From Burkholderiaceae bacterium (lineage in GTDB: Bacteria > Pseudomonadota > Gammaproteobacteria > Burkholderiales > Burkholderiaceae_F): a stretch of DNA of 64,000 nt. The notes under the pieces are model-generated. The model had not been told where the DNA came from and ran no database searches. It saw nothing but the letters and a program-made list of their open reading frames with translations. The position numbers and the translations under genes were made by a program. Within the stretch, counting starts at the first letter, position 1. Each line of letters begins with the position of its first letter. Shown here piece after piece: positions 9,913 to 63,465 of this stretch. The stretch is from NCBI GenBank assembly GCA_035498175.1, contig DATKAJ010000105.1, positions 9,482 to 73,481 on the forward strand, written 5' to 3'.

Positions 9913-10935
9913 CTACTTGCCGTAGCGCTGACGCGCAAGCTCGACACCCTTGCCGAGTGCGGCGAGCTTGGCCAGCGCGACCTCGCGCTTCATCGGCGCC
10001 ATCCCGCAGTTGGTGCAGGCGAGCAGGTGCTCCCGGCCGACGAACTGCAGCGCCTTGCCGATCGTATCGGCCACCTGCTCCGGCGTTTCGACGACGTCGG
10101 ACGCGACATCGATGACGCCGACCAGCACGTCCTTGCCTTCGAGCAGCTTCATCAACTCCATCGGCACTTTCGAGTTCATGCACTCGAGCGACACCGCCTG
10201 GATCGTGCTCTTCGCGAGCGCCGGGAAGATTTCCTCGTACTGCCGCCACTCGGAGCCCAGCGTCGCCTTCCAGTCGACATTGGCCTTGATGCCGTAGCCG
10301 TAGCAGATGTGCACGACCGTGCGGCAGGTGAGTCCCTGCGCCGCGCGATCGAGCGCGCGGATGCCCCAAGCCTTCACGTCGTCCATGTAGACGTTGAAGG
10401 CCGGCTCGTCGAACTGGATCACGTCGACGCCATCGGCCTGCAGCGCGCGCGCCTCCTGGTTCAGCAACTCGGCGAAGGCCATCGCCATCTTGGCGCGGTC
10501 ACCGTAGTAGCGGTCGGCGACCGTGTCGACGATCGTCATCGGGCCGGGCAGCGTGATCTTCAGTTTCTTCTTCGTGTGCTGGCGCGCGAGCTTCGCCTCG
10601 ACCTGGTGCACCCGTCCCTTGAGCTTCAACGGGCCGACGACCTGCGGCACCATCGCCTTGTAGCGCTCCTTGCGGATGCCCATCTCGACCTTGTGCTCGA
10701 AGTCGATGCCGTCAACGGACTCAAGAAAGCCGTGCACGAAGTGCTGGCGCGACTGCTCACCGTCGCCAACGATGTCGAGACCGGCGTCTTCCTGCTCTTT
10801 CAGCCACAGCAGCGTCGCATCGCGCTTCGCAGCGGCGAGTTCGGCACCGGAAAGCTTCCACTGCGGCCAGAGCTTGTCGGTTTCGGCGAGCCAGCCGGGC
10901 TTGGGCAGGCTGCCGGCGATCGTGGCTTCGAACAT
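9913..10935 (-). CDS. cobalamin-independent methionine-synthase-like methyltransferase (MetE C-terminal domain family)
   Basis: 340 aa. MFEATIAGSLPKPGWL, VVHICYGYG and ACTNCGMAP (Zn-ligand His/Cys pattern). Confidence 0.8.
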   Translation of the reverse strand: MFEATIAGSLPKPGWLAETDKLWPQWKLSGAELAAAKRDATLLWLKEQEDAGLDIVGDGEQSRQHFVHGFLESVDGIDFEHKVEMGIRKERYKAMVPQVVGPLKLKGRVHQVEAKLARQHTKKKLKITLPGPMTIVDTVADRYYGDRAKMAMAFAELLNQEARALQADGVDVIQFDEPAFNVYMDDVKAWGIRALDRAAQGLTCRTVVHICYGYGIKANVDWKATLGSEWRQYEEIFPALAKSTIQAVSLECMNSKVPMELMKLLEGKDVLVGVIDVASDVVETPEQVADTIGKALQFVGREHLLACTNCGMAPMKREVALAKLAALGKGVELARQRYGK

Positions 10936-10965
10936 CGTTTGCTCCCGGATTGAGGAGCAAACGAT
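10934..10965 (-). promoter_or_regulatory. 12-bp perfect hairpin sequestering the SD and start codon of the MetE-like gene
   Basis: mRNA sense: AUCGUUUGCUCC-UCAAUCCG-GGAGCAAACGAU-G. The 3' arm holds GGAG and the AU of the AUG. Confidence 0.45.
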
Positions 10966-10980
10966 ACAGGCCCGGAACGA

Positions 10981-11841
10981 TCAGGCCGCGCCCTGCAGCT
11001 CACCGATCAGTTCGTCCTTCTGCTCCCACAGGGTGTTGATCCACGCCTGCATGCCATTCCGGAACGCCGCATCTCCGGCATAGTCGCCCGCGAGCAGCGC
11101 CTGCGGAATCTCGCGCTGCTGCACGCGCACGGTGACCCGGCGCAGCCGCCCCGACAGCAGCGTCCAGAAGGTCGGCGCGCCATCCGGGTAGACGATCGTC
11201 ACGTCGAGCAGCCGATGGAACTGGCTGCCGAGCGTCGTCAGCGCGGTGGCGATGCCACCGACCTTCGGCTTCAGCAGGTGCGCGTAGGGGGAACGCTGGG
11301 CGTCGTGCTTCGCCGGCGTGAAGCGCGTGCCCTCGAGGAAACTGATCACCGAGGTCGGCACGGTACGGAACTTCTCGCAGGCCTTGCGCGCGCGCTCGAG
11401 GTCCTGGGCACCCGCAAGGCCGCCGCGGCGCCGCATGAACGGGAAGTCGAGCGCCCACCACGCCAGCCCGATGACCGGCACCCAGATCAGTTCGCGCTTG
11501 AGAAAGAACTTCAGCAGCGGAATGCGGCGATTGAAGATTCTCTGCAGCACCAGGATATCGGCCCAGCTCTGGTGATTGCTCGACACCAGGTACCAGCCGC
11601 GCGGCTCGAGCCCGTCGACACCCCGCACGTCCCAATGCGCGGTAGCGGGCGCGACCCAGGCGTTGTTGACCGAGATCCAACTCGTGGCGATCGCATTCAT
11701 CGCCCGGTCAGTCACCTGCCGCACCGCGTGAAATGGCAGCGCGATCTTCAGCAGGACAAACGGGACCATGCAGACCACGCCCGCCAGCGTGTTCAGCATC
11801 AGTACCAGCGTGGCCAGTACGCCGCGCATCGTCTGCAGCAT
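10981..11841 (-). CDS. lysophospholipid/1-acyl-glycerol-3-phosphate acyltransferase family (YihG-like)
   Basis: HQSWADILVL (HX4D) and FLEGTRF motifs. Start uncertain (ATG at 11841 or 11829, or the ORF start at 11913). Confidence 0.75.
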   Translation of the reverse strand: MLQTMRGVLATLVLMLNTLAGVVCMVPFVLLKIALPFHAVRQVTDRAMNAIATSWISVNNAWVAPATAHWDVRGVDGLEPRGWYLVSSNHQSWADILVLQRIFNRRIPLLKFFLKRELIWVPVIGLAWWALDFPFMRRRGGLAGAQDLERARKACEKFRTVPTSVISFLEGTRFTPAKHDAQRSPYAHLLKPKVGGIATALTTLGSQFHRLLDVTIVYPDGAPTFWTLLSGRLRRVTVRVQQREIPQALLAGDYAGDAAFRNGMQAWINTLWEQKDELIGELQGAA

Positions 11842-12092
11842 GGTCCGCGAAGGGTACGTGAAGGGTACGCGGAAACCCGAGCGCCGGTCATGCGGACGGT
11901 TGAGGCAGCGCAATGCCTGGCGTCGTCGCCGCCGCGGGTGCGAGCCACCACTTCAAAAAAGGCCGCTCCCGCCCGCCCTTTTTGCAGGTTGGGGCTTCGC
12001 CTACCCACGCGAACATGCGATCTCGAATGATTCCGTTCGGCGGGAACGGACCGCGGCGCAAGCGCCGGCCGGGCCCCCGGGCAGGACGCAGG

Positions 12093-57329: not shown

Positions 57330-57464
57330 CTACCTCTTCGCGTATGCCTCGAGCAGCAGGCTGCGATCGGGCATGTCCTGCAGCACCAGACGGCCGAGCG
57401 AGGTGTCAGCCTGCAGTCGTCCCGACGACTGGGGTTGAGCGTCGTCGCCGTTGGCGCGAGTCAC
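57330..57464 (-). CDS. possible 44-codon small ORF (GTG start) trailing the exported-protein operon
   Basis: ~82 percent GC3 by hand count, 21 nt after the stop of the upstream gene. Sequence VTRANGDDAQPQSSGRLQADTSLGRLVLQDMPDRSLLLEAYAKR. No family recognised. Confidence 0.2.
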   Translation of the reverse strand: MTRANGDDAQPQSSGRLQADTSLGRLVLQDMPDRSLLLEAYAKR

Positions 57465-57485
57465 TTCTTCGTCATCGACTCACGC

Positions 57486-58034
57486 CTAGCAGATCCATCC
57501 TTTGTTGCGTTGCGGCTCCATCTCGAAGCTCGTGTAGTCCCCGCTCTTGTCGTCGCTCACCGACTGCGCGTGCAGGTAGAGCGGCTTGCGCCCGGCGAGC
57601 GTGACGCGATAGATGCGCGAACCGCCCGACGCCTCGCCCGGACATGCACCGCGGACCTGCTCGAACTTCGTGTTCGCCGGAAACTGCGACGTCACCGCCT
57701 GCTGGATCTTCGGCAGCTCGATCTTCTTCTGCACGCCCGCCGTTGCCGAGGTGACGTTCTTCTGCGTGCCGACAAGGGCCAACTCTCCGGTGCCAAGCCC
57801 GTCGAGCGGCAGATTTGCGTTCCAGTAGTACTGGTTGCCGCCGCGCTGCGGCGCCTTGCCCTTCCACTGCGTGCCTTTGAGTTTGGAGAAGGCGGACCAG
57901 TCGTTGGTGGGCTGCGGTGAGGCCGCCGGCGCGGCCAGCGCCGCAGCAATTTCGCCGAGCGTCGCGGCCGTGGCGCAGGGCGCCACAAGCACAGCAGTAC
58001 ACGCGGCCACCGCCGCGACAATGAGCCTCTTCAT
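57486..58034 (-). CDS. secreted hypothetical protein
   Basis: Signal peptide MKRLIVAAVAACTAVLVAPCATAA; 182 aa; ends in Cys. Confidence 0.6.
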   Translation of the reverse strand: MKRLIVAAVAACTAVLVAPCATAATLGEIAAALAAPAASPQPTNDWSAFSKLKGTQWKGKAPQRGGNQYYWNANLPLDGLGTGELALVGTQKNVTSATAGVQKKIELPKIQQAVTSQFPANTKFEQVRGACPGEASGGSRIYRVTLAGRKPLYLHAQSVSDDKSGDYTSFEMEPQRNKGWIC

Positions 58035-58072
58035 GTCGCTCCCCCTGCCCTGTGTGTAGGTGATCCGGACGG

Positions 58073-58495
58073 CTACCCCTGCCGCCATTGCTTCTTCCAC
58101 AGCGCGCTCAGTTCGGTCGCCACCGCGCCCGGCGGATCACCGATCAGCGTCGTCTTGCCTCTCTCGTAGATCGTGCCGTAAACGACCTTCTTCTCGGGCG
58201 AGTACAAAATCACCGCGTTGTTGTCGCCGCAGTCGTGGTCCTTGCAGAACGCGCTCAGCACATAGCGCTGACCCGCGACGGTGACAAAGGTGTCTTCGGG
58301 CGCCGGTCCGTTGCGCCTGGCGATCCATGGCGTGTTGGCCCGCGGGCCAATCGCCTTCATGTAGGCCGACTTGAACGCCGGCTCCTTCAGGTACTCCCAG
58401 GCCTGCTTCTGCTTCTGCGCGCTCGCAGGCGCGACGAGCGCCACGAGCATCAGGCCGAAGCAAGCGCCTGCGATCCCGATCCACCTCGACATCAC
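58073..58495 (-). CDS. Ivy-family (inhibitor of vertebrate lysozyme)-like periplasmic protein
   Basis: Signal peptide. The loop FCKDHDCGDNN closely matches the Ivy CKPHDC inhibitory loop. Confidence 0.65.
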   Translation of the reverse strand: MMSRWIGIAGACFGLMLVALVAPASAQKQKQAWEYLKEPAFKSAYMKAIGPRANTPWIARRNGPAPEDTFVTVAGQRYVLSAFCKDHDCGDNNAVILYSPEKKVVYGTIYERGKTTLIGDPPGAVATELSALWKKQWRQG

Positions 58496-58524
58496 GCCCC
58501 CGCTCCGCCGCGATTCGCTCGCAT

Positions 58525-59007
58525 TCAGAACTTCGGCGGCGGCAGGCTGTTCGGGTCCGCCTTCTCGCAGCGCATCCTGAAGGTCGCCAGGATCGTGTCG
58601 TCGGCGTTGCGGTAATCGCCCTCGAGATTGCCGGTCTGGCGATCGATCGACACGCGGATGTACGCGAGGCGCTTCAGACTCGGATCCCAGGCAAACAGCG
58701 CGCCACGATACCAGTCGTAGTACAGCTGCGTGCGCGCCTGCGGCGAGCGATAGGTCATGCTGTACGCCGCGGGCGAGACCTCGTACTTCATCTTGTCGCC
58801 GACCGGCAGAACATTCGAGCGCTGGATCAGCGCGGTCTGATTGTTGTCACGCAGCGCGAGGTCGAGATTGGCCGGCGCCCTTCCCTTGGGCGACGACACC
58901 TCGCCGTCGCACTTCACGTACAGCGAGAAATAGTCCGCCGAGGCGCTGATCGGCAGCGCCAGCACTGCGATGCCGATCAGCACATCGAAGCCGCGATGGG
59001 GTTTCAT
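58525..59007 (-). CDS. secreted hypothetical protein
   Basis: Signal peptide ...LALPISASA. Two Cys (KCDGE, RCEKA). 4-nt gap after the upstream gene. Confidence 0.6.
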   Translation of the reverse strand: MKPHRGFDVLIGIAVLALPISASADYFSLYVKCDGEVSSPKGRAPANLDLALRDNNQTALIQRSNVLPVGDKMKYEVSPAAYSMTYRSPQARTQLYYDWYRGALFAWDPSLKRLAYIRVSIDRQTGNLEGDYRNADDTILATFRMRCEKADPNSLPPPKF

Positions 59008-59011
59008 CGGG

Positions 59012-59902
59012 CTACTGCTTCACTTCGCGCGAGGCATCGGTGCTGCCGCCCTGCACGCCGAGCCGACCTCCCGTGCCCAGGCCGCCACGCACCGTCTGCG
59101 CCTTGTAGTTGCGCAGCGCGCGGACCATCTTGTTGTACGAATCTGTAAACGCCGCAAAGATGACCTTGCCCTGCGGCGTGCTGGTGTAGGCGCCCGCGCC
59201 GCCGGCTGCGCCCCCACCGAAGAAGCCGCCCATGCCGGCAAAGTCGACATTCTTCGAGTAGCCCTCGGCCGCGGCCAGTTGCACCGTGGAACGGTTGTCG
59301 ATCAGCGTCAGGATCGCGCCGGCTTCATTGGTCGACATCGACCCGGCGATGCCGCCGACCACCGCGCCGACACCGGTACGCCCGAGCAACCCGCCGAGAC
59401 CGCCACCGGCACGCTGGCCGCCGCGGTCCGACAGGATCACTTCGGGGATCATCGTGTAGTCGGCCGCAGCGATCTGGCCCTTGCCCATGTTGCTGCCCGC
59501 ACGGCCTTCTTCGCCGCGAATCAGATCGGCTTCACGATTACGCGCCGCGAGGCCGCGGCCGCGGTCGACGATCACGAAGCAATTCGACTGCTGGATGATC
59601 AGCCGCAGCGCGGGGACCGTCGAGCCCATCTTGTACTGGCTCTGATACGCCGAGTACCAGCCGGCGTTTGTTTGCTCGTCGATCATGATCGTGCCGAGCG
59701 TTTCGGGACAGGTCTCGAGTCCGGGATTGGACTCGGTGGTGCTGCCGCCGGCCGCTGCACCCTGCGCCTGCGTGGCATGTCCGCCACCTGGCTGCGGGTC
59801 TGCGGCGAGGCAGTTCCAGGGCGCAAGCGCCGCCCCGCCCAGCAGCAGAACGGGGGCGAGCCAGCGGGCGCCGACCGCCGCACCGATTGCCTTTGCGTTC
59901 AT
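59012..59902 (-). CDS. CsgG/HfaB-family outer-membrane secretion-channel-like protein
   Basis: Signal peptide. LIIQQSNCFVIVDRG...AADYTMIPEVI...Gly-rich loop...AGAILTLIDNRS pattern typical of the CsgG fold. Confidence 0.65.
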   Translation of the reverse strand: MNAKAIGAAVGARWLAPVLLLGGAALAPWNCLAADPQPGGGHATQAQGAAAGGSTTESNPGLETCPETLGTIMIDEQTNAGWYSAYQSQYKMGSTVPALRLIIQQSNCFVIVDRGRGLAARNREADLIRGEEGRAGSNMGKGQIAAADYTMIPEVILSDRGGQRAGGGLGGLLGRTGVGAVVGGIAGSMSTNEAGAILTLIDNRSTVQLAAAEGYSKNVDFAGMGGFFGGGAAGGAGAYTSTPQGKVIFAAFTDSYNKMVRALRNYKAQTVRGGLGTGGRLGVQGGSTDASREVKQ

Positions 59903-59974
59903 CGCACTCTCCTCCTCGAAAGCCGCCGCGCGGCACGCCTGCAACGTAGCGAGCAGGGCGTTACCGAGCCGTTA

Positions 59975-62900
59975 CTACAGACGCGTCGCCGCTGTCAGGA
60001 CACCCCGGTGGACCGGATTACGGTCCAGGAAACTGTCGCGAAACGCCTCCGGGACCTGGCTCGCGGCCTGGCGCAGCCAGGCCACCGCGGGCGCCAGCGC
60101 CGCCGCGGCCCGCTCGTGCTCGCCGGCAGCCCGCAGCACCTCGAAGCCAACGGCCGCCGCGAAGACCGGAGAACAATCGGCCGCCTGCTGCGATGCCAGC
60201 GACGGTTGCAGCGCGGCCCAGCGCGCGGCCGCCGCCCCGACATCTCCACCATGCAACGTGGAGCGCACGGCGAGCAGCCGCGCCTTGAGCGCGATCCCGC
60301 CGTATTCGCGCTGCTCGGCATCGCCGGCGATCGCATCGCACGTTCGCAGCGCCTCGTGGGCATCGAGCATCTCAGTCCGCTCGAGGCCGAGCAGCGCACC
60401 GATGTAAAAGTCCTCGCTCAGCGCAAGCTCGTCCGCCGCTCGCGCCAGGTCCGTCGCCGGAGAAGATCCCAGCAGCCGCGCGATACGTCCCGACAGCAGC
60501 GCGCCGCGCGCGGCGACGTGGCTCACCGAGGGCGACTGGTACTCAAGCGCACGGCGCGCGCGCGTGTACTGCCCGAGCTCGATCAGCGTCATCGCGAGGT
60601 TGTTGCTGCAGACGGCGATCCAGAGCGTCTGTCCGTCGCGCCGGAAGCACTCGAGTGCGCTGTCGAACGCCTGCAGGCTGATCGAGTAATGCCCGCGCGC
60701 CGCGGCATACAGCGCAACGTGCGCCTCGATGACGCCAGCAATCGGCCCGGCCGCGCCGCCGAGCTCGACCTGCAGGGCGCGCGCGCGCAGAGCGTGCTCG
60801 TACGCCTGATCGGCGTGGCCGAGGTTGCCGTAGACGGTGGCCAGATTGGTCGTCAGCATCGCGAGCTCCGCCAGATCGCCGAGTTCGCGCGCGCACTCGA
60901 TCGCACGCGTCAACGCCGCGGCCGTGCGCCGCAGTCGCCGTTCCGAATTCAACACGTACGCCAGATCCGACCAGTAGTGCCCGCGCTGTTGCAGCGATCC
61001 CTCGTTCTCGATCATCGACTCGAACGGCGCCAGGACGGCCTCGGCTTCGGTCGTCTTTCCCTGCTGCGCGAGGCCAACCGCGATCAAGCGCGCTGCCTCG
61101 AACCGCAGCGCGGGCTGCCCGAGCGCCTCCGCCAACGCCAGCGCCTCGCGCGCGCTGGCGATTCCAGTGACGTGGTCGGCTGCCATCAGCGCCGCATTGG
61201 CGCGCGCGGTCAGCGCGGCCGCCTTCTGCGCATCCGTGCGTGCGACCGCGATCATGCCTTCGATCACCGTCTGCGCATGCTCGACGCCGCGCACCAGGAT
61301 AAGACCCTCGATGCTTGCCGCACGCGCCTCGAACGCGGCGTCGGCGTCGCCTGCGCGATCGAAGCAGTGCGTCGCCGCCTCGCGCTGCTCGACTTCCTCG
61401 CCGCGTCGCGACGCGCGCCGCGCTGCCTCGGCGGCGCGCACGTGGCAGCGCGCAGCCAGCAGCCACGCTCCGGACTCTGCGAAATGCTGTGCAACTCGCG
61501 CCGGTGGTGCCGACTGTGCATCGAGATACTCGGCGATACCACGGTGGAGCAGGCGGCCGATTGGCCCCGGCACGCCACGCAGCGCCACGTCGCGCACCAG
61601 ATCGTGTGCAAAGCCGTCGCCCTGCAGCACGTGCGCGCGCTCGAGTTCGGACCAGGCCTCGGCCAAGTCGAGCGGATGGGCCTGCAGCACATGCGCCGCG
61701 AGCGCAGCGCTGAATTCGGGGCCTGCGAGCGCCGCGATCCGCGCCAGCCGCAGCGCTGCGGGGCTCAACTGCGCCAGGCGGCGCTCGATCAGCGCGCCGA
61801 CACTGGGCGCCGTCGGCAGCGGCCCGCGCAGCGCGTCAGGCTGCACCACCATGGCTCCCAACGTTTCAAGCACGAAGTACGGATTGCCCCCGGTGTGACG
61901 GGTGAGCGGCCCGGCGATCGCCGCCGAATCGATTCCAGCCAGCGCGAGCGTATCCAGCAGCTGCCGCACGTCGGCCTCGCTCAGCGCCGGCAGCGCGATC
62001 TCGATCAGCGTGGTTCCGGTCTCGACCCCTTCCCAGGCGGCGAGGGCGGGCGGCATCTCCGCCCCGCGCACCGCGAGCGCGAAGCGCAGGCCCGATGTCA
62101 CGAGCGCGGGCAGCAGCTCGAGCGAGGCCGAGTCCGCGAAGTGCAGGTCGTCCAGCGCCACGCCGGCCAGCCCGCCGGCGGCCTGCGCGGCGCAGGCCTG
62201 CGCGACAGCCTGGCGGAAGCGCGCTTCGTTCAGCGGCTCCGACGGCGCCGACCCGATCTCCGGCAGCACGCGCGCAAGTTCGGCACGCAGCGGGTCGACA
62301 ACCGTCTTGGCGACACCGGTGTCGCCACCGAGGAGGGAACGCAGCAGGCGCGCGAGCAGCGCATACGGAACGCGCTCATCCCCGGGGCGTGCACCGACCA
62401 GGGGAATGCCGCGCGTCTGCGCGAAGTCGCCGAGCAGGCGTGTCTTGCCCATCCCTGCGTCGGCAATCACGACGGCGACACGCTGCTGTTCCCACGCCTC
62501 TTCGAGTGCACGGAACTGCCGCTCGCGCCCGACTCGCACCGGCGGGCGTGCAATCGCCGTCGGCAGGCGCCGCGCGGCACTGCCTGGCAGTTCGCCCGAG
62601 CGCTCGATCAACTGGGCCAGCTCACGCGTCTCGGTGCTCGGTTCGGCGTCGAGCTCGCGCCGCAGCCATTGCTCGCAGCGCGCGTAGGCGGCAAGCGCCG
62701 CCGAGCGATCGCCGCGCCGGTAGTGCAGCCGCATCACCATGCGATGCGCCTGCTCGGACAGCGGCTCGTCGACAACCAGGCGGTCCGCGTAGACGAGCGC
62801 GCGCGCGATGTGTCCGCCGGCTTCCTCGGCCGCCGCGGCTGCTGCGATGGCGTCGCGCCGCTGTGCGCGAAAGCGCTCGCGCGCGGCGCGAACCCAGTCG

Positions 62901-63370
62901 TCGAGCTCGGCGCAGTCCTCATAGCCGAAACTGCCGAGCAGCTCGCCGGCGGCCGCCGTCGGATCCTGCGCCAGCTGGGCGCGCACCGAGAGGTCGTGCA
63001 TGACCCCGGCCGCGAGCGCAAGCGCCGCGCTTTCGTCGACGACGTCGCGATCGGCGGCGCGGCGCAGCCGGAACAGGCGTTGCCGCAGGCTGTTGCGGGC
63101 CTTCTGCGATTCCGAATCGGGCCAGAGCAGCGCCGCCGCGTGCTGCCGTGAGGTCGGTCCGTCGAGCGCCAGCAGGGCGAGCAGCGCAGCGTCCTTGCGT
63201 TCGAGAGCGACGAGCCCACCGTCGGCGCGCAGCAGCGCCGGCGCCGCCAGCAGGCGCAGATGGATGACGGCAGCAGCTGTCGAGGGTTCGTGCACCGCCA
63301 GCTCCGCGGGCCGCAACCAGCGATGCAGCCCGGTCGCTGCAGGCCTACGGCGCGCCTCGATCCCGTGCAC
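59975..63370 (-). CDS. large STAND-type regulator: OmpR/PhoB-like wHTH + BTAD + P-loop NTPase + TPR
   Basis: RNSLRQRLFRLRR (wHTH), BTAD helices (AHRMVMRLHYRRGDRSAALAAYARCEQWLRRELDAEPSTET), Walker A ADAGMGKTRLL, long helical repeat tail. The true start may be downstream of 63370. Confidence 0.8.
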   Translation of the reverse strand: MHGIEARRRPAATGLHRWLRPAELAVHEPSTAAAVIHLRLLAAPALLRADGGLVALERKDAALLALLALDGPTSRQHAAALLWPDSESQKARNSLRQRLFRLRRAADRDVVDESAALALAAGVMHDLSVRAQLAQDPTAAAGELLGSFGYEDCAELDDWVRAARERFRAQRRDAIAAAAAAEEAGGHIARALVYADRLVVDEPLSEQAHRMVMRLHYRRGDRSAALAAYARCEQWLRRELDAEPSTETRELAQLIERSGELPGSAARRLPTAIARPPVRVGRERQFRALEEAWEQQRVAVVIADAGMGKTRLLGDFAQTRGIPLVGARPGDERVPYALLARLLRSLLGGDTGVAKTVVDPLRAELARVLPEIGSAPSEPLNEARFRQAVAQACAAQAAGGLAGVALDDLHFADSASLELLPALVTSGLRFALAVRGAEMPPALAAWEGVETGTTLIEIALPALSEADVRQLLDTLALAGIDSAAIAGPLTRHTGGNPYFVLETLGAMVVQPDALRGPLPTAPSVGALIERRLAQLSPAALRLARIAALAGPEFSAALAAHVLQAHPLDLAEAWSELERAHVLQGDGFAHDLVRDVALRGVPGPIGRLLHRGIAEYLDAQSAPPARVAQHFAESGAWLLAARCHVRAAEAARRASRRGEEVEQREAATHCFDRAGDADAAFEARAASIEGLILVRGVEHAQTVIEGMIAVARTDAQKAAALTARANAALMAADHVTGIASAREALALAEALGQPALRFEAARLIAVGLAQQGKTTEAEAVLAPFESMIENEGSLQQRGHYWSDLAYVLNSERRLRRTAAALTRAIECARELGDLAELAMLTTNLATVYGNLGHADQAYEHALRARALQVELGGAAGPIAGVIEAHVALYAAARGHYSISLQAFDSALECFRRDGQTLWIAVCSNNLAMTLIELGQYTRARRALEYQSPSVSHVAARGALLSGRIARLLGSSPATDLARAADELALSEDFYIGALLGLERTEMLDAHEALRTCDAIAGDAEQREYGGIALKARLLAVRSTLHGGDVGAAAARWAALQPSLASQQAADCSPVFAAAVGFEVLRAAGEHERAAAALAPAVAWLRQAASQVPEAFRDSFLDRNPVHRGVLTAATRL

Positions 63371-63376
63371 GACGAA

Positions 63377-63398
63377 CTCCGTCGAAAGGTCGACGGAG
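63377..63398 (-). terminator. hairpin downstream of the molybdoenzyme gene
   Basis: ctccgtcga-aagg-tcgacggag perfect 9-bp stem, followed on the minus strand by UUCGUCGU. Confidence 0.35.
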
Positions 63399-63465
63399 CA
63401 ATGGTTCGACGTGCAGCGTTACCGGGACGTTATAGAGAGCGAAACAGGCCGTCCAGCGCAGCGCG

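Follow-up and report, generated by a model that had tools for sequence, protein, structure and literature searches.

A candidate SARP-controlled envelope regulon with a non-curli CsgG-family protein in a Burkholderiaceae bacterium

Introduction

Regulators of the SARP type have been described as essentially actinobacterial, and matches to them in proteobacteria have been regarded as atypical (PMC7040171). The published SARP sites consist of heptamer direct repeats in 11-bp units, which overlap the −35 element and end approx. 8 nt from the −10 element, and two SARP domains bind these repeats side by side and recruit RNA polymerase (PMC10972967, PMC11301090). In the bacterial envelope, most proteins of the CsgG family (Pfam PF03783) have long been known as non-curli paralogues with no assigned role (PMC3521004), and the CsgG-type core fold is common to lipoproteins that do not form pores (PMC13631591). 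In Escherichia coli, the Ivy protein is part of the Rcs envelope-stress regulon and has a partial inhibitory effect on lytic transglycosylases (PMC10139938). Here we describe a block of five genes, called A to E below, in which relatives of all three lie next to each other, within a 64000-nt stretch of DNA from an uncultured Burkholderiaceae bacterium of soil (assembly GCA_035498175.1, contig DATKAJ010000105.1, positions 9482–73481 of the forward strand); the whole of this stretch is referred to as the window, and positions are counted from its first letter.

We propose, as an evenly balanced judgement, that the block is a lineage-specific and inducible envelope regulon, in which an AfsR-like switch would drive both itself and the exported proteins B, C, D and E. 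Our literature search found no published description of the five-gene set, as an earlier note on this DNA, made from its letters alone, had also supposed, and on characterized non-curli CsgG paralogues it yielded general statements only.

Results

Anatomy of the block

All five genes lie on the minus strand. Gene A (63370–59975, 1131 aa) encodes a predicted AfsR-type large SARP/STAND regulator and is followed by B (59902–59012, 296 aa), a non-curli CsgG/HfaB-family protein, C (59007–58525, 160 aa), an exported partner of B, D (58495–58073, 140 aa), an exported protein of the Ivy family, and E (58034–57486, 182 aa), an exported protein of no known family. The intergenic gaps, read off the sequence, are 72 nt between A and B and then 4, 29 and 38 nt down to E, and a strong ribosome-binding site, GAGGAGGAG, stands ahead of B. 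The N-termini of B, C, D and E each carry a charged n-region, a hydrophobic core and an AxA-type site, as judged by reading the sequences and not by a predictor. The coordinates, gaps and four signal peptides given in the earlier note were reproduced by our sequence check, and its family calls (BTAD and P-loop for A, CsgG for B and Ivy for D) were upheld by Pfam matches.

Direct repeats of SARP type at both promoters

The link between the regulator and the operon is a direct repeat that was first seen in an alignment of A–B intergenic regions from related loci. A search of the window with the pattern GTAACG-N5-GTAACG, allowing one mismatch, gave two sites against 0.04 expected by chance, and both fall in the two promoter gaps. 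Operator 1 (ATAACGTCCCGGTAACG, 63417–63433, minus strand), at the promoter of A, contains two repeats 11 bp apart, lies 47 nt before the start of A and is followed after 10 nt by the −10-like hexamer AACCAT (63406–63401, minus strand). Operator 2 (GTAACGGCTCGGTAACG, 59959–59975, minus strand), at the promoter of the B–E operon, lies 57 nt before the start of B, its first repeat overlapping the stop codon of A, and is likewise followed after 10 nt by a −10-like hexamer, TACGTT (59948–59943, minus strand). Both promoters thus display the full architecture GGTAACG-N4-GGTAACG-N10 followed by a TAnnnT-like hexamer. In addition, an invariant TGGACG (63455–63450, minus strand), 22 nt or two helical turns upstream of the first repeat at the A promoter, may be a third half-site.

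These elements are strongly conserved. Both operators are kept in all seven related loci that span both promoters; operator 1 forms an invariant block in eight of eight aligned sequences (the window and seven related loci), and operator 2 is present upstream of B in eight of eight close loci, with a spacing of 12 nt instead of 11 in L007. No other part of either intergenic region is as well conserved in the alignments as the repeats. The hexamer that lies 10 nt past the second GGTAACG always has A as its second and T as its sixth letter, being TACGTT, TACGGT, TACCCT, TACGCT, TAAATT or TAGCTT upstream of B (AACCTT in L012 alone) and AACCAT, AACGAT or AAGGAT upstream of A. With a relaxed pattern we obtained 26 matches in the approx. 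1.5 Mb of fetched loci. Of these, 19 are immediately upstream of an A or B gene and another falls just past the A-like gene in L061, where the DNA downstream of this second operator gave no clear gene call. The operator, with a TAnnnT hexamer at the same distance, also precedes B in four distant loci that are scattered across the B tree (L020, L045, L061 and L086; B 53–59% identical to that of the window), and in the last three of these an A-like STAND gene (38–49% identical) stands next to B.

Given this conservation, together with the analogy to actinobacterial SARPs, A would be expected to activate both its own promoter and that of B–E. The earlier note had placed the operon under control of the adjacent ATP-dependent regulator and had suggested a search upstream of position 59902 for shared motifs that the regulator could bind; the conserved operators of SARP type at the two promoters now support such control, and a shared motif is found in the GTAACG direct repeat, present before B and before A.

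One of the distant loci has a more elaborate arrangement. In L086 (9660–9710), from a Rubrivivax metagenome-assembled genome, four tandem 11-nt units ending in GGTAACG lie upstream of the CsgG-like gene, with the A-like STAND gene directly upstream and two unrelated small genes, which give weak FG-GAP and GYF_2 matches, downstream.

The regulator

Gene A matches the Pfam families BTAD (PF03704, E 8.9e-16) and AAA_16 (E 2.9e-12), and its Walker A and Walker B motifs can be read as DAGMGKT and VALDD. A profile built from A and its relatives over the 300 N-terminal residues has EmbR as its best PDB match (2FEZ, E 2e-7, in the BTAD region) and also matches the SARP domain of AfsR (8HVR, E 7e-6) in an alignment that covers residues 56–255 and includes the DNA-binding segment LLWPD...NSLRQRLFRLRR; a stretch of the EmbR DNA-binding domain is weakly aligned as well. 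Full-length A returned nothing useful against the PDB sequences. As it combines a SARP-like N-terminus with a P-loop NOD and a TPR-like tail, A is predicted to have the domain order of AfsR (PMC11301090) and to be an AfsR-type large SARP composed of a winged helix, a BTAD domain, a P-loop NOD and a TPR-like C-terminus.

The regulator is not equally well preserved along its length. When its C-terminal half (59975–61510 in the window) is compared with other loci, the C-terminal sensor region is no more than 28% identical in L012 (469–3903), and the C-terminal half is approx. 35% identical in L015, whereas in the same comparison the SARP part stays approx. 70% identical and B 86–88%. This suggests an exchange of the sensor domain within the clade.

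The leader of A (63365–63412, minus strand) contains a conserved stem–loop, CCGTCG/CGACGG, with one compensatory change in L012, and an outer stem pairs CACG with a CGTG that includes the GTG start codon. As the ribosome-binding site of A sits in the 3′ arm of this stem–loop, translational control of the regulator is possible. At the other end of the block, a 7-bp GC-rich hairpin, CAGTCGT/ACGACTG (57414–57431, minus strand), lies 55 nt past the stop codon of E without a T-run and is a weak candidate for the terminator of the B–E operon. A scan of the 64-kb window gave no tRNA gene and no Rfam match.

Distribution of the block

B comes from a large family: more than 3052 clusters are formed at 90% identity, and species-representative genomes contain at least 582 matching stretches. 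The matches listed span Burkholderiales, Rhodocyclales, Xanthomonadales, other gammaproteobacterial and deltaproteobacterial lineages and Campylobacterota. We examined its surroundings in 89 fetched loci, which were searched with all five proteins, followed by finer protein comparisons and by looking up further contigs. In most loci B stands alone amid unrelated genes, and neighbour clustering of 79 loci showed that only C and the STAND regulator recur with B beyond local synteny. The pair B+C occurs without A, D and E in approx. 30 loci, a subset of Burkholderiales that includes the Sphaerotilus, Aquabacterium, Rubrivivax and Leptothrix relatives as well as P0033, P0035 and P0047, which are 73–78% identical; these pairs are often set among housekeeping genes and lack a regulator, an Ivy gene and E. 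In the loci examined C always came together with B, and wherever it was found it is the gene next downstream of B, and the two abut or overlap.

The complete order A–B–C–D–E was seen in only eight fetched loci (L007, L010–L015 and L036), seven of them from species-representative genomes, and in all of these B is at least 82% identical to that of the window. In a rough neighbour-joining tree of B they form a single branch nested within a B+C clade. The suggestion that the five genes form a conserved system did not survive this comparison: the full order belongs to one narrow clade, the pair B+C to approx. 30 loci, and B is mostly alone. From this layered occurrence, the five-gene block would appear to be a recent accretion around an older B+C pair, which in turn would be an elaboration of a widespread stand-alone B gene.

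Several arrangements around B outside this clade may be recorded here. In L095 (1–5501) and L096, several genes on the same strand precede the B+C pair: one for a protein of at least 700 aa, truncated by the end of the locus, with LysM, Peptidase_C39_2 and DUF1521 domains, and three smaller ones of 130, 184 and 249 aa, of which the 249-aa one has DUF6683; these neighbours are a possible cell-wall link or cargo. In four Massilia loci (L057, L070, L087 and L089), open reading frames of approx. 1400–1800 aa lie upstream of a stand-alone CsgG-like gene on the same strand (upstream of position 10000), and in L057, L070 and L089 a further one of approx. 650 aa lies in between. Shorter stand-alone paralogues of B (267–273 aa in L097, from a Caballeronia plasmid, and L098, from a Burkholderia contaminans plasmid), 44–51% identical over approx. 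70% of B, occur on large plasmids of Burkholderia, Caballeronia and Paraburkholderia, and their RefSeq label reads 'CsgG/HfaB family protein' and nothing more.

Gene B and its fold

By its sequence, B is assigned to the CsgG/HfaB family: it matches PF03783 with 27.2 bits against a gathering score of 20.8 (E 2.8e-6), and most of its homologues also bear a precomputed PF03783 match. In hhalign, the B profile aligned over its N-terminal half with E. coli CsgG (E 4.8e-4), the CsgG sequence used having been verified against the PDB. An invariant aromatic-rich loop (Trp82, Tyr83, Tyr86 and Tyr90) aligns at the position of the CsgG constriction loop. Two inserts, 158–188 and 222–240 (approx. 31 and 19 residues), are conserved and rich in glycine and aromatic residues, the family alignment placing the aromatic residues at the ends and the length variation in the middle of each; they fall at β3–β4 and β5–α3, which we take to be the positions of the TM1 and TM2 hairpins of CsgG. 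The protein closes with a conserved Gly-rich tail. We consider B most likely to be a ring or pore at the outer membrane, and a CsgG-type channel, as far as the modelled core goes, is plausible.

Most members of the B family carry an L(S/A/T)GC lipobox, which is LSGC or LAGC in distant ones. In the window, B reads APWNC/LAADPQ in its N-terminal part (59805–59902), with no canonical L-[AST]-[GAS]-C lipobox, and most of the closest relatives have no cysteine at this position. As the lipobox is also gone in P0033, where B and C occur on their own, its loss is not tied to the gain of A, D and E. Goyal et al. in 2014 are said to have found that E. coli CsgG needs its lipobox for outer-membrane targeting. 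The loss implies, at the level of sequence, that B of the window may reach or attach to the outer membrane in an altered way.

The absence of a lipobox in the clade of the window is also what one would expect if B were instead a periplasmic ring or scaffold that forms no pore, belonging to the CsgG/PelC/PqiC/LptE fold class, serving another outer-membrane or cell-wall component and being soluble in this clade, an explanation that we consider unlikely. The AlphaFold2 model fits this as well, for its 12 best Foldseek matches in the PDB are all chains of CsgG in the soluble pre-pore form (4UV2, E 9e-6 to 4e-4, TM-scores 0.30–0.50), with PelC, HpaA, PqiC-like proteins, LptE and FlgT, which have the core fold in common, close behind, a fold that non-pore lipoproteins use (PMC13631591). 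The inserts, moreover, are extremely Gly-rich, show GxxxG spacing and were modelled at pLDDT (predicted local distance difference test) values below 50. However, these same inserts lie exactly at the TM1 and TM2 positions when the alignment is read against the CsgG structure, and they are conserved, with aromatic ends and length variation confined to the middle, while the aromatic loop is retained at the constriction position and Pfam places B in CsgG, not in PelC or LptE. Of the CsgG-like channel of the earlier note, then, the family match and the core fold have stood; B of the window has no lipobox, and its model is not firm beyond the core.

Gene C, the partner of B

C gave no Pfam or NCBIfam family, in Pfam even at E up to 10, and its family members (281 clusters) gave no Pfam match when scanned singly. 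A deep search found 52 representatives among 1.84 billion proteins, with no link to a known family, and a protein with exactly the sequence of C is known from a metagenome-assembled genome labelled 'Burkholderiaceae bacterium'. AlphaFold2 predicts an eight-stranded β-fold (pLDDT 79) that has no significant match in the PDB (best E 5.8e-3), the non-significant matches being generic eight-stranded β-barrel or lipocalin-like folds, the TbpB handle, NHBA and LolA-like proteins. Cys33 and Cys147, near the two ends of the mature protein, are invariant, as is an LPxPKF motif at the C-terminus, and there is a conserved but poorly modelled aromatic loop, YYDWxRGxLFxWxP. Since a disulfide is likely, and since the cargo of a narrow CsgG-type pore must be unfolded, it is probable that C remains folded in the periplasm, where it would sit on B as a cap or adaptor and not be its cargo.

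Genes D and E and an inserted gene

D matches the Pfam Ivy family (PF08816) with 42.2 bits against a gathering score of 21 (E 1e-10), as well as the Pseudomonas aeruginosa Ivy structures 4PS6 (E 7e-12) and 1UUZ (E 1.2e-11). Within its loop FCKDHDCGDNN, the segment CKDHDCGDNN aligns opposite CKPHDCGNN of P. aeruginosa Ivy, CKDHDC being the disulfide loop. Among orthologues this loop reads CKNNDC, CKNQDC, CKNHDC or CKNRDC, so that only its two cysteines, the lysine and the aspartate are invariant, and against the NCBIfam Ivy equivalog PRK09993 D scores 32.6 bits, far below the cut-off of 180. The Ivy-like protein of the earlier note keeps its family, but a role as lysozyme inhibitor is weakened by the replacement of the loop histidine by Asn, Gln or Arg in orthologues and by the low equivalog score. 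Given this variable histidine and the fact that D is 44–77% identical across loci in which B is 82–94% identical, the classical Ivy mechanism may not hold for the whole group, and the target of D may be a different one or be evolving.

In four of the eight close-clade loci, although not in the window, an extra gene, I1 (178–197 aa, 94–96% identical), lies between C and D (L007, 9561–10097; L010, 4455–5048; L014, 11355–11942; L036, within an open reading frame at 10879–12024). The precomputed 'Ivy' Pfam label of I1 was not reproduced, hmmscan finding no family even at E up to 10. E has an invariant Cys131 and a C-terminal Cys182, and its family comprises 99 clusters, every fetched locus with E belonging to the close clade. 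It matches nothing in Pfam (E up to 10), NCBIfam, PADLOC or the PDB, and neither E nor its family profile gave anything useful against PDB sequences; family members scanned singly against Pfam returned one weak DUF2505 match (E 0.014).

The rapid divergence of D relative to B, its variable contact loop and the variable presence of I1 could also mean that the block is a periplasmic inhibitor or immunity island, in which D, I1, E and perhaps C block peptidoglycan-degrading toxins or lysozymes of competitors or predators and B is a bystander that shares their promoter. All four proteins are small, disulfide-bearing and exported, and the sensor domain of A, apparently swapped in L012 and diverged in L015, would agree with such an island. 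We nevertheless judge it improbable, as C is tied to B and not to D or E across the approx. 30 loci without an Ivy gene, the operator is tied to B in lineages that have neither D nor E, no toxin or type VI secretion gene is present among the Pfam-annotated genes of the close-clade locus L007, and C and E match no known inhibitor family.

Readings without a regulon

It is very unlikely that the five genes are no functional unit at all, i.e. chance neighbours in one lineage with a repeat motif unrelated to the regulator. The restriction of the full block to one narrow clade and the many unrelated contexts of B would allow this, but the fetched loci of the clade, seven from species-representative genomes, preserve the gene order and the tight spacing, and neither intergenic region has a better conserved block than the motif, which recurs with A-like genes beside distant homologues of B and has the form of a textbook SARP site (PMC10972967).

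Finally, the match of B to the CsgG family and the STAND NTPase in A might recall curli-like (type VIII) amyloid secretion or an Avs-like anti-phage STAND defence, for which there is next to no chance: the operon proteins match only CsgG (B) and Ivy (D) at E ≤0.1, with no curlin repeat, CsgE or CsgF, C and E (no Pfam match at E ≤10) are folded and non-repetitive, not curli-like cargo, the sole PADLOC match reaches only 12 bits (E 0.007) and is not credible, and the effector part of A is a predicted DNA-binding SARP domain with no nuclease or killing domain. The absence of CsgA-, CsgB-, CsgE- or CsgF-like genes reported earlier is accordingly confirmed for the operon proteins B to E.

Discussion

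The proposed regulon

In the regulon that we propose, triggering of the sensor of A would lead two SARP domains to bind side by side on the two GTAACG repeats 11 bp apart, which would stand in for a −35 element, with the TAnnnT −10 hexamer 10 nt further downstream. A would thereby recruit RNA polymerase at its own promoter, giving positive autoregulation, and at the promoter directly after its stop codon, giving expression of B, C, D and E. The ancient core would be the non-curli B with its dedicated periplasmic partner C, B serving as the outer-membrane ring or pore and C as the docked cap or adaptor, and D, the Ivy-family protein, and E would have joined the unit in this clade only. D would most likely bind an enzyme that cleaves the glycan of peptidoglycan, either a lytic transglycosylase or an external lysozyme-like enzyme, and the induced state would be an envelope remodelling or protection response. 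Because E. coli Ivy is induced by Rcs and partly inhibits lytic transglycosylases (PMC10139938), protection or remodelling of the cell wall is the most economical guess for the role of the unit.

The genes, their families, the pattern of synteny and the conservation of the operators are matters of observation, whereas binding by the regulator, pore formation, a B–C complex, the target of D, the sensing of a signal and the physiological role are what we infer from them. What we believe to be newly recognized here is the regulatory link, i.e. a putative SARP operator at both the A and the B–E promoters. In its boldest form, which we regard as doubtful, the proposal would make A the first proteobacterial AfsR-type activator with an operator and regulon that can be read from sequence, controlling an undescribed non-curli CsgG-type pore and its new dedicated periplasmic partner C, a new branch of CsgG-type machinery with a non-amyloid cargo or permeant, coupled in this lineage to fast-evolving Ivy-like inhibitors as an inducible envelope protection.

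Several points weigh against the proposed regulon. On the side of control, the role of the operators is argued entirely from their conservation and from the analogy with actinobacterial SARPs; in gene A the winged helix was not detected as Pfam Trans_reg_C, and the TPR matches all fall under their gathering scores (TPR_12, 20.5 bits with a cut-off of 30.1). On the side of B, the AlphaFold2 monomer has a mean pLDDT of 58 (70–87 in the core), the family profile found no match among PDB sequences, the canonical lipobox is missing in the window, and the unmodelled Gly-rich inserts could be something other than β-hairpins. A secretion role for B is unsupported, as most of its homologues stand alone with no partner or cargo nearby. 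The loop histidine of D varies among orthologues, and neither C nor E offers any functional clue.

Significance

Large SARP/NLR-like regulators have been studied almost only in Streptomyces, and a proteobacterial SARP with a clear two-site envelope regulon would offer a simple case in which to study the triggering of such switches. If the proposal is correct, the SARP promoter mechanism would extend outside the Actinobacteria, to a betaproteobacterium. Most CsgG-family members are non-curli paralogues, and the family of B is both large and widespread; the B+C pair, with its link to a regulator, would provide the first experimental handles on this family, namely an inducer pathway, a partner and a defined promoter. 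The variable loop of the Ivy-like proteins may likewise indicate targets other than C-type lysozyme.

Comparison with known systems

B shares its Pfam family and α/β core with CsgG of E. coli and with HfaB, the exporter of the Caulobacter holdfast anchor, as well as a loop at the constriction-loop position and two inserts at the positions of the transmembrane hairpins, and most members of its subfamily are lipoproteins. It differs in having no CsgA, CsgB, CsgE, CsgF or Hfa partners in its operon, in a very low similarity that gives no PDB match by sequence profile, in its extremely Gly-rich inserts and additional conserved Gly-rich C-terminal tail and, in the window, in the missing lipobox; its partner C has no counterpart in curli systems.

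The Ivy proteins YkfE of E. coli and IvyP1 of P. aeruginosa, inhibitors of C-type lysozyme and lytic transglycosylases, resemble D in their Pfam family, with E values of approx. 1e-11 to the solved structures, in a disulfide-bridged loop at the same position and in periplasmic location, and E. coli Ivy too is part of an envelope-stress regulon (PMC10139938). D differs in its loop, CKDHDC in place of CKPHDC, with the histidine changed to Asn, Gln or Arg in orthologues, in falling below the NCBIfam Ivy equivalog and in a shorter C-terminal part.

With the NLR-like AfsR of Streptomyces coelicolor, A has in common the predicted order of DNA-binding domain, BTAD, ATPase and TPR, an N-terminal profile that matches the solved AfsR SARP domain and a putative operator whose direct repeats, in 11-bp units, end shortly before the −10 element (PMC11301090, PMC10972967). 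In contrast with AfsR, A is found in a betaproteobacterium, its repeat sequence is GGTAACG, its predicted targets are envelope proteins and not antibiotic biosynthesis, it is apparently autoregulated, and no kinase partner was identified for it. EmbR of Mycobacterium tuberculosis, the best PDB sequence match of the BTAD region of A, has an FHA domain where A has NOD and TPR, is controlled by a Ser/Thr kinase and is itself actinobacterial. It provides a precedent for a SARP that controls genes of the cell envelope, those for the arabinosyltransferases.

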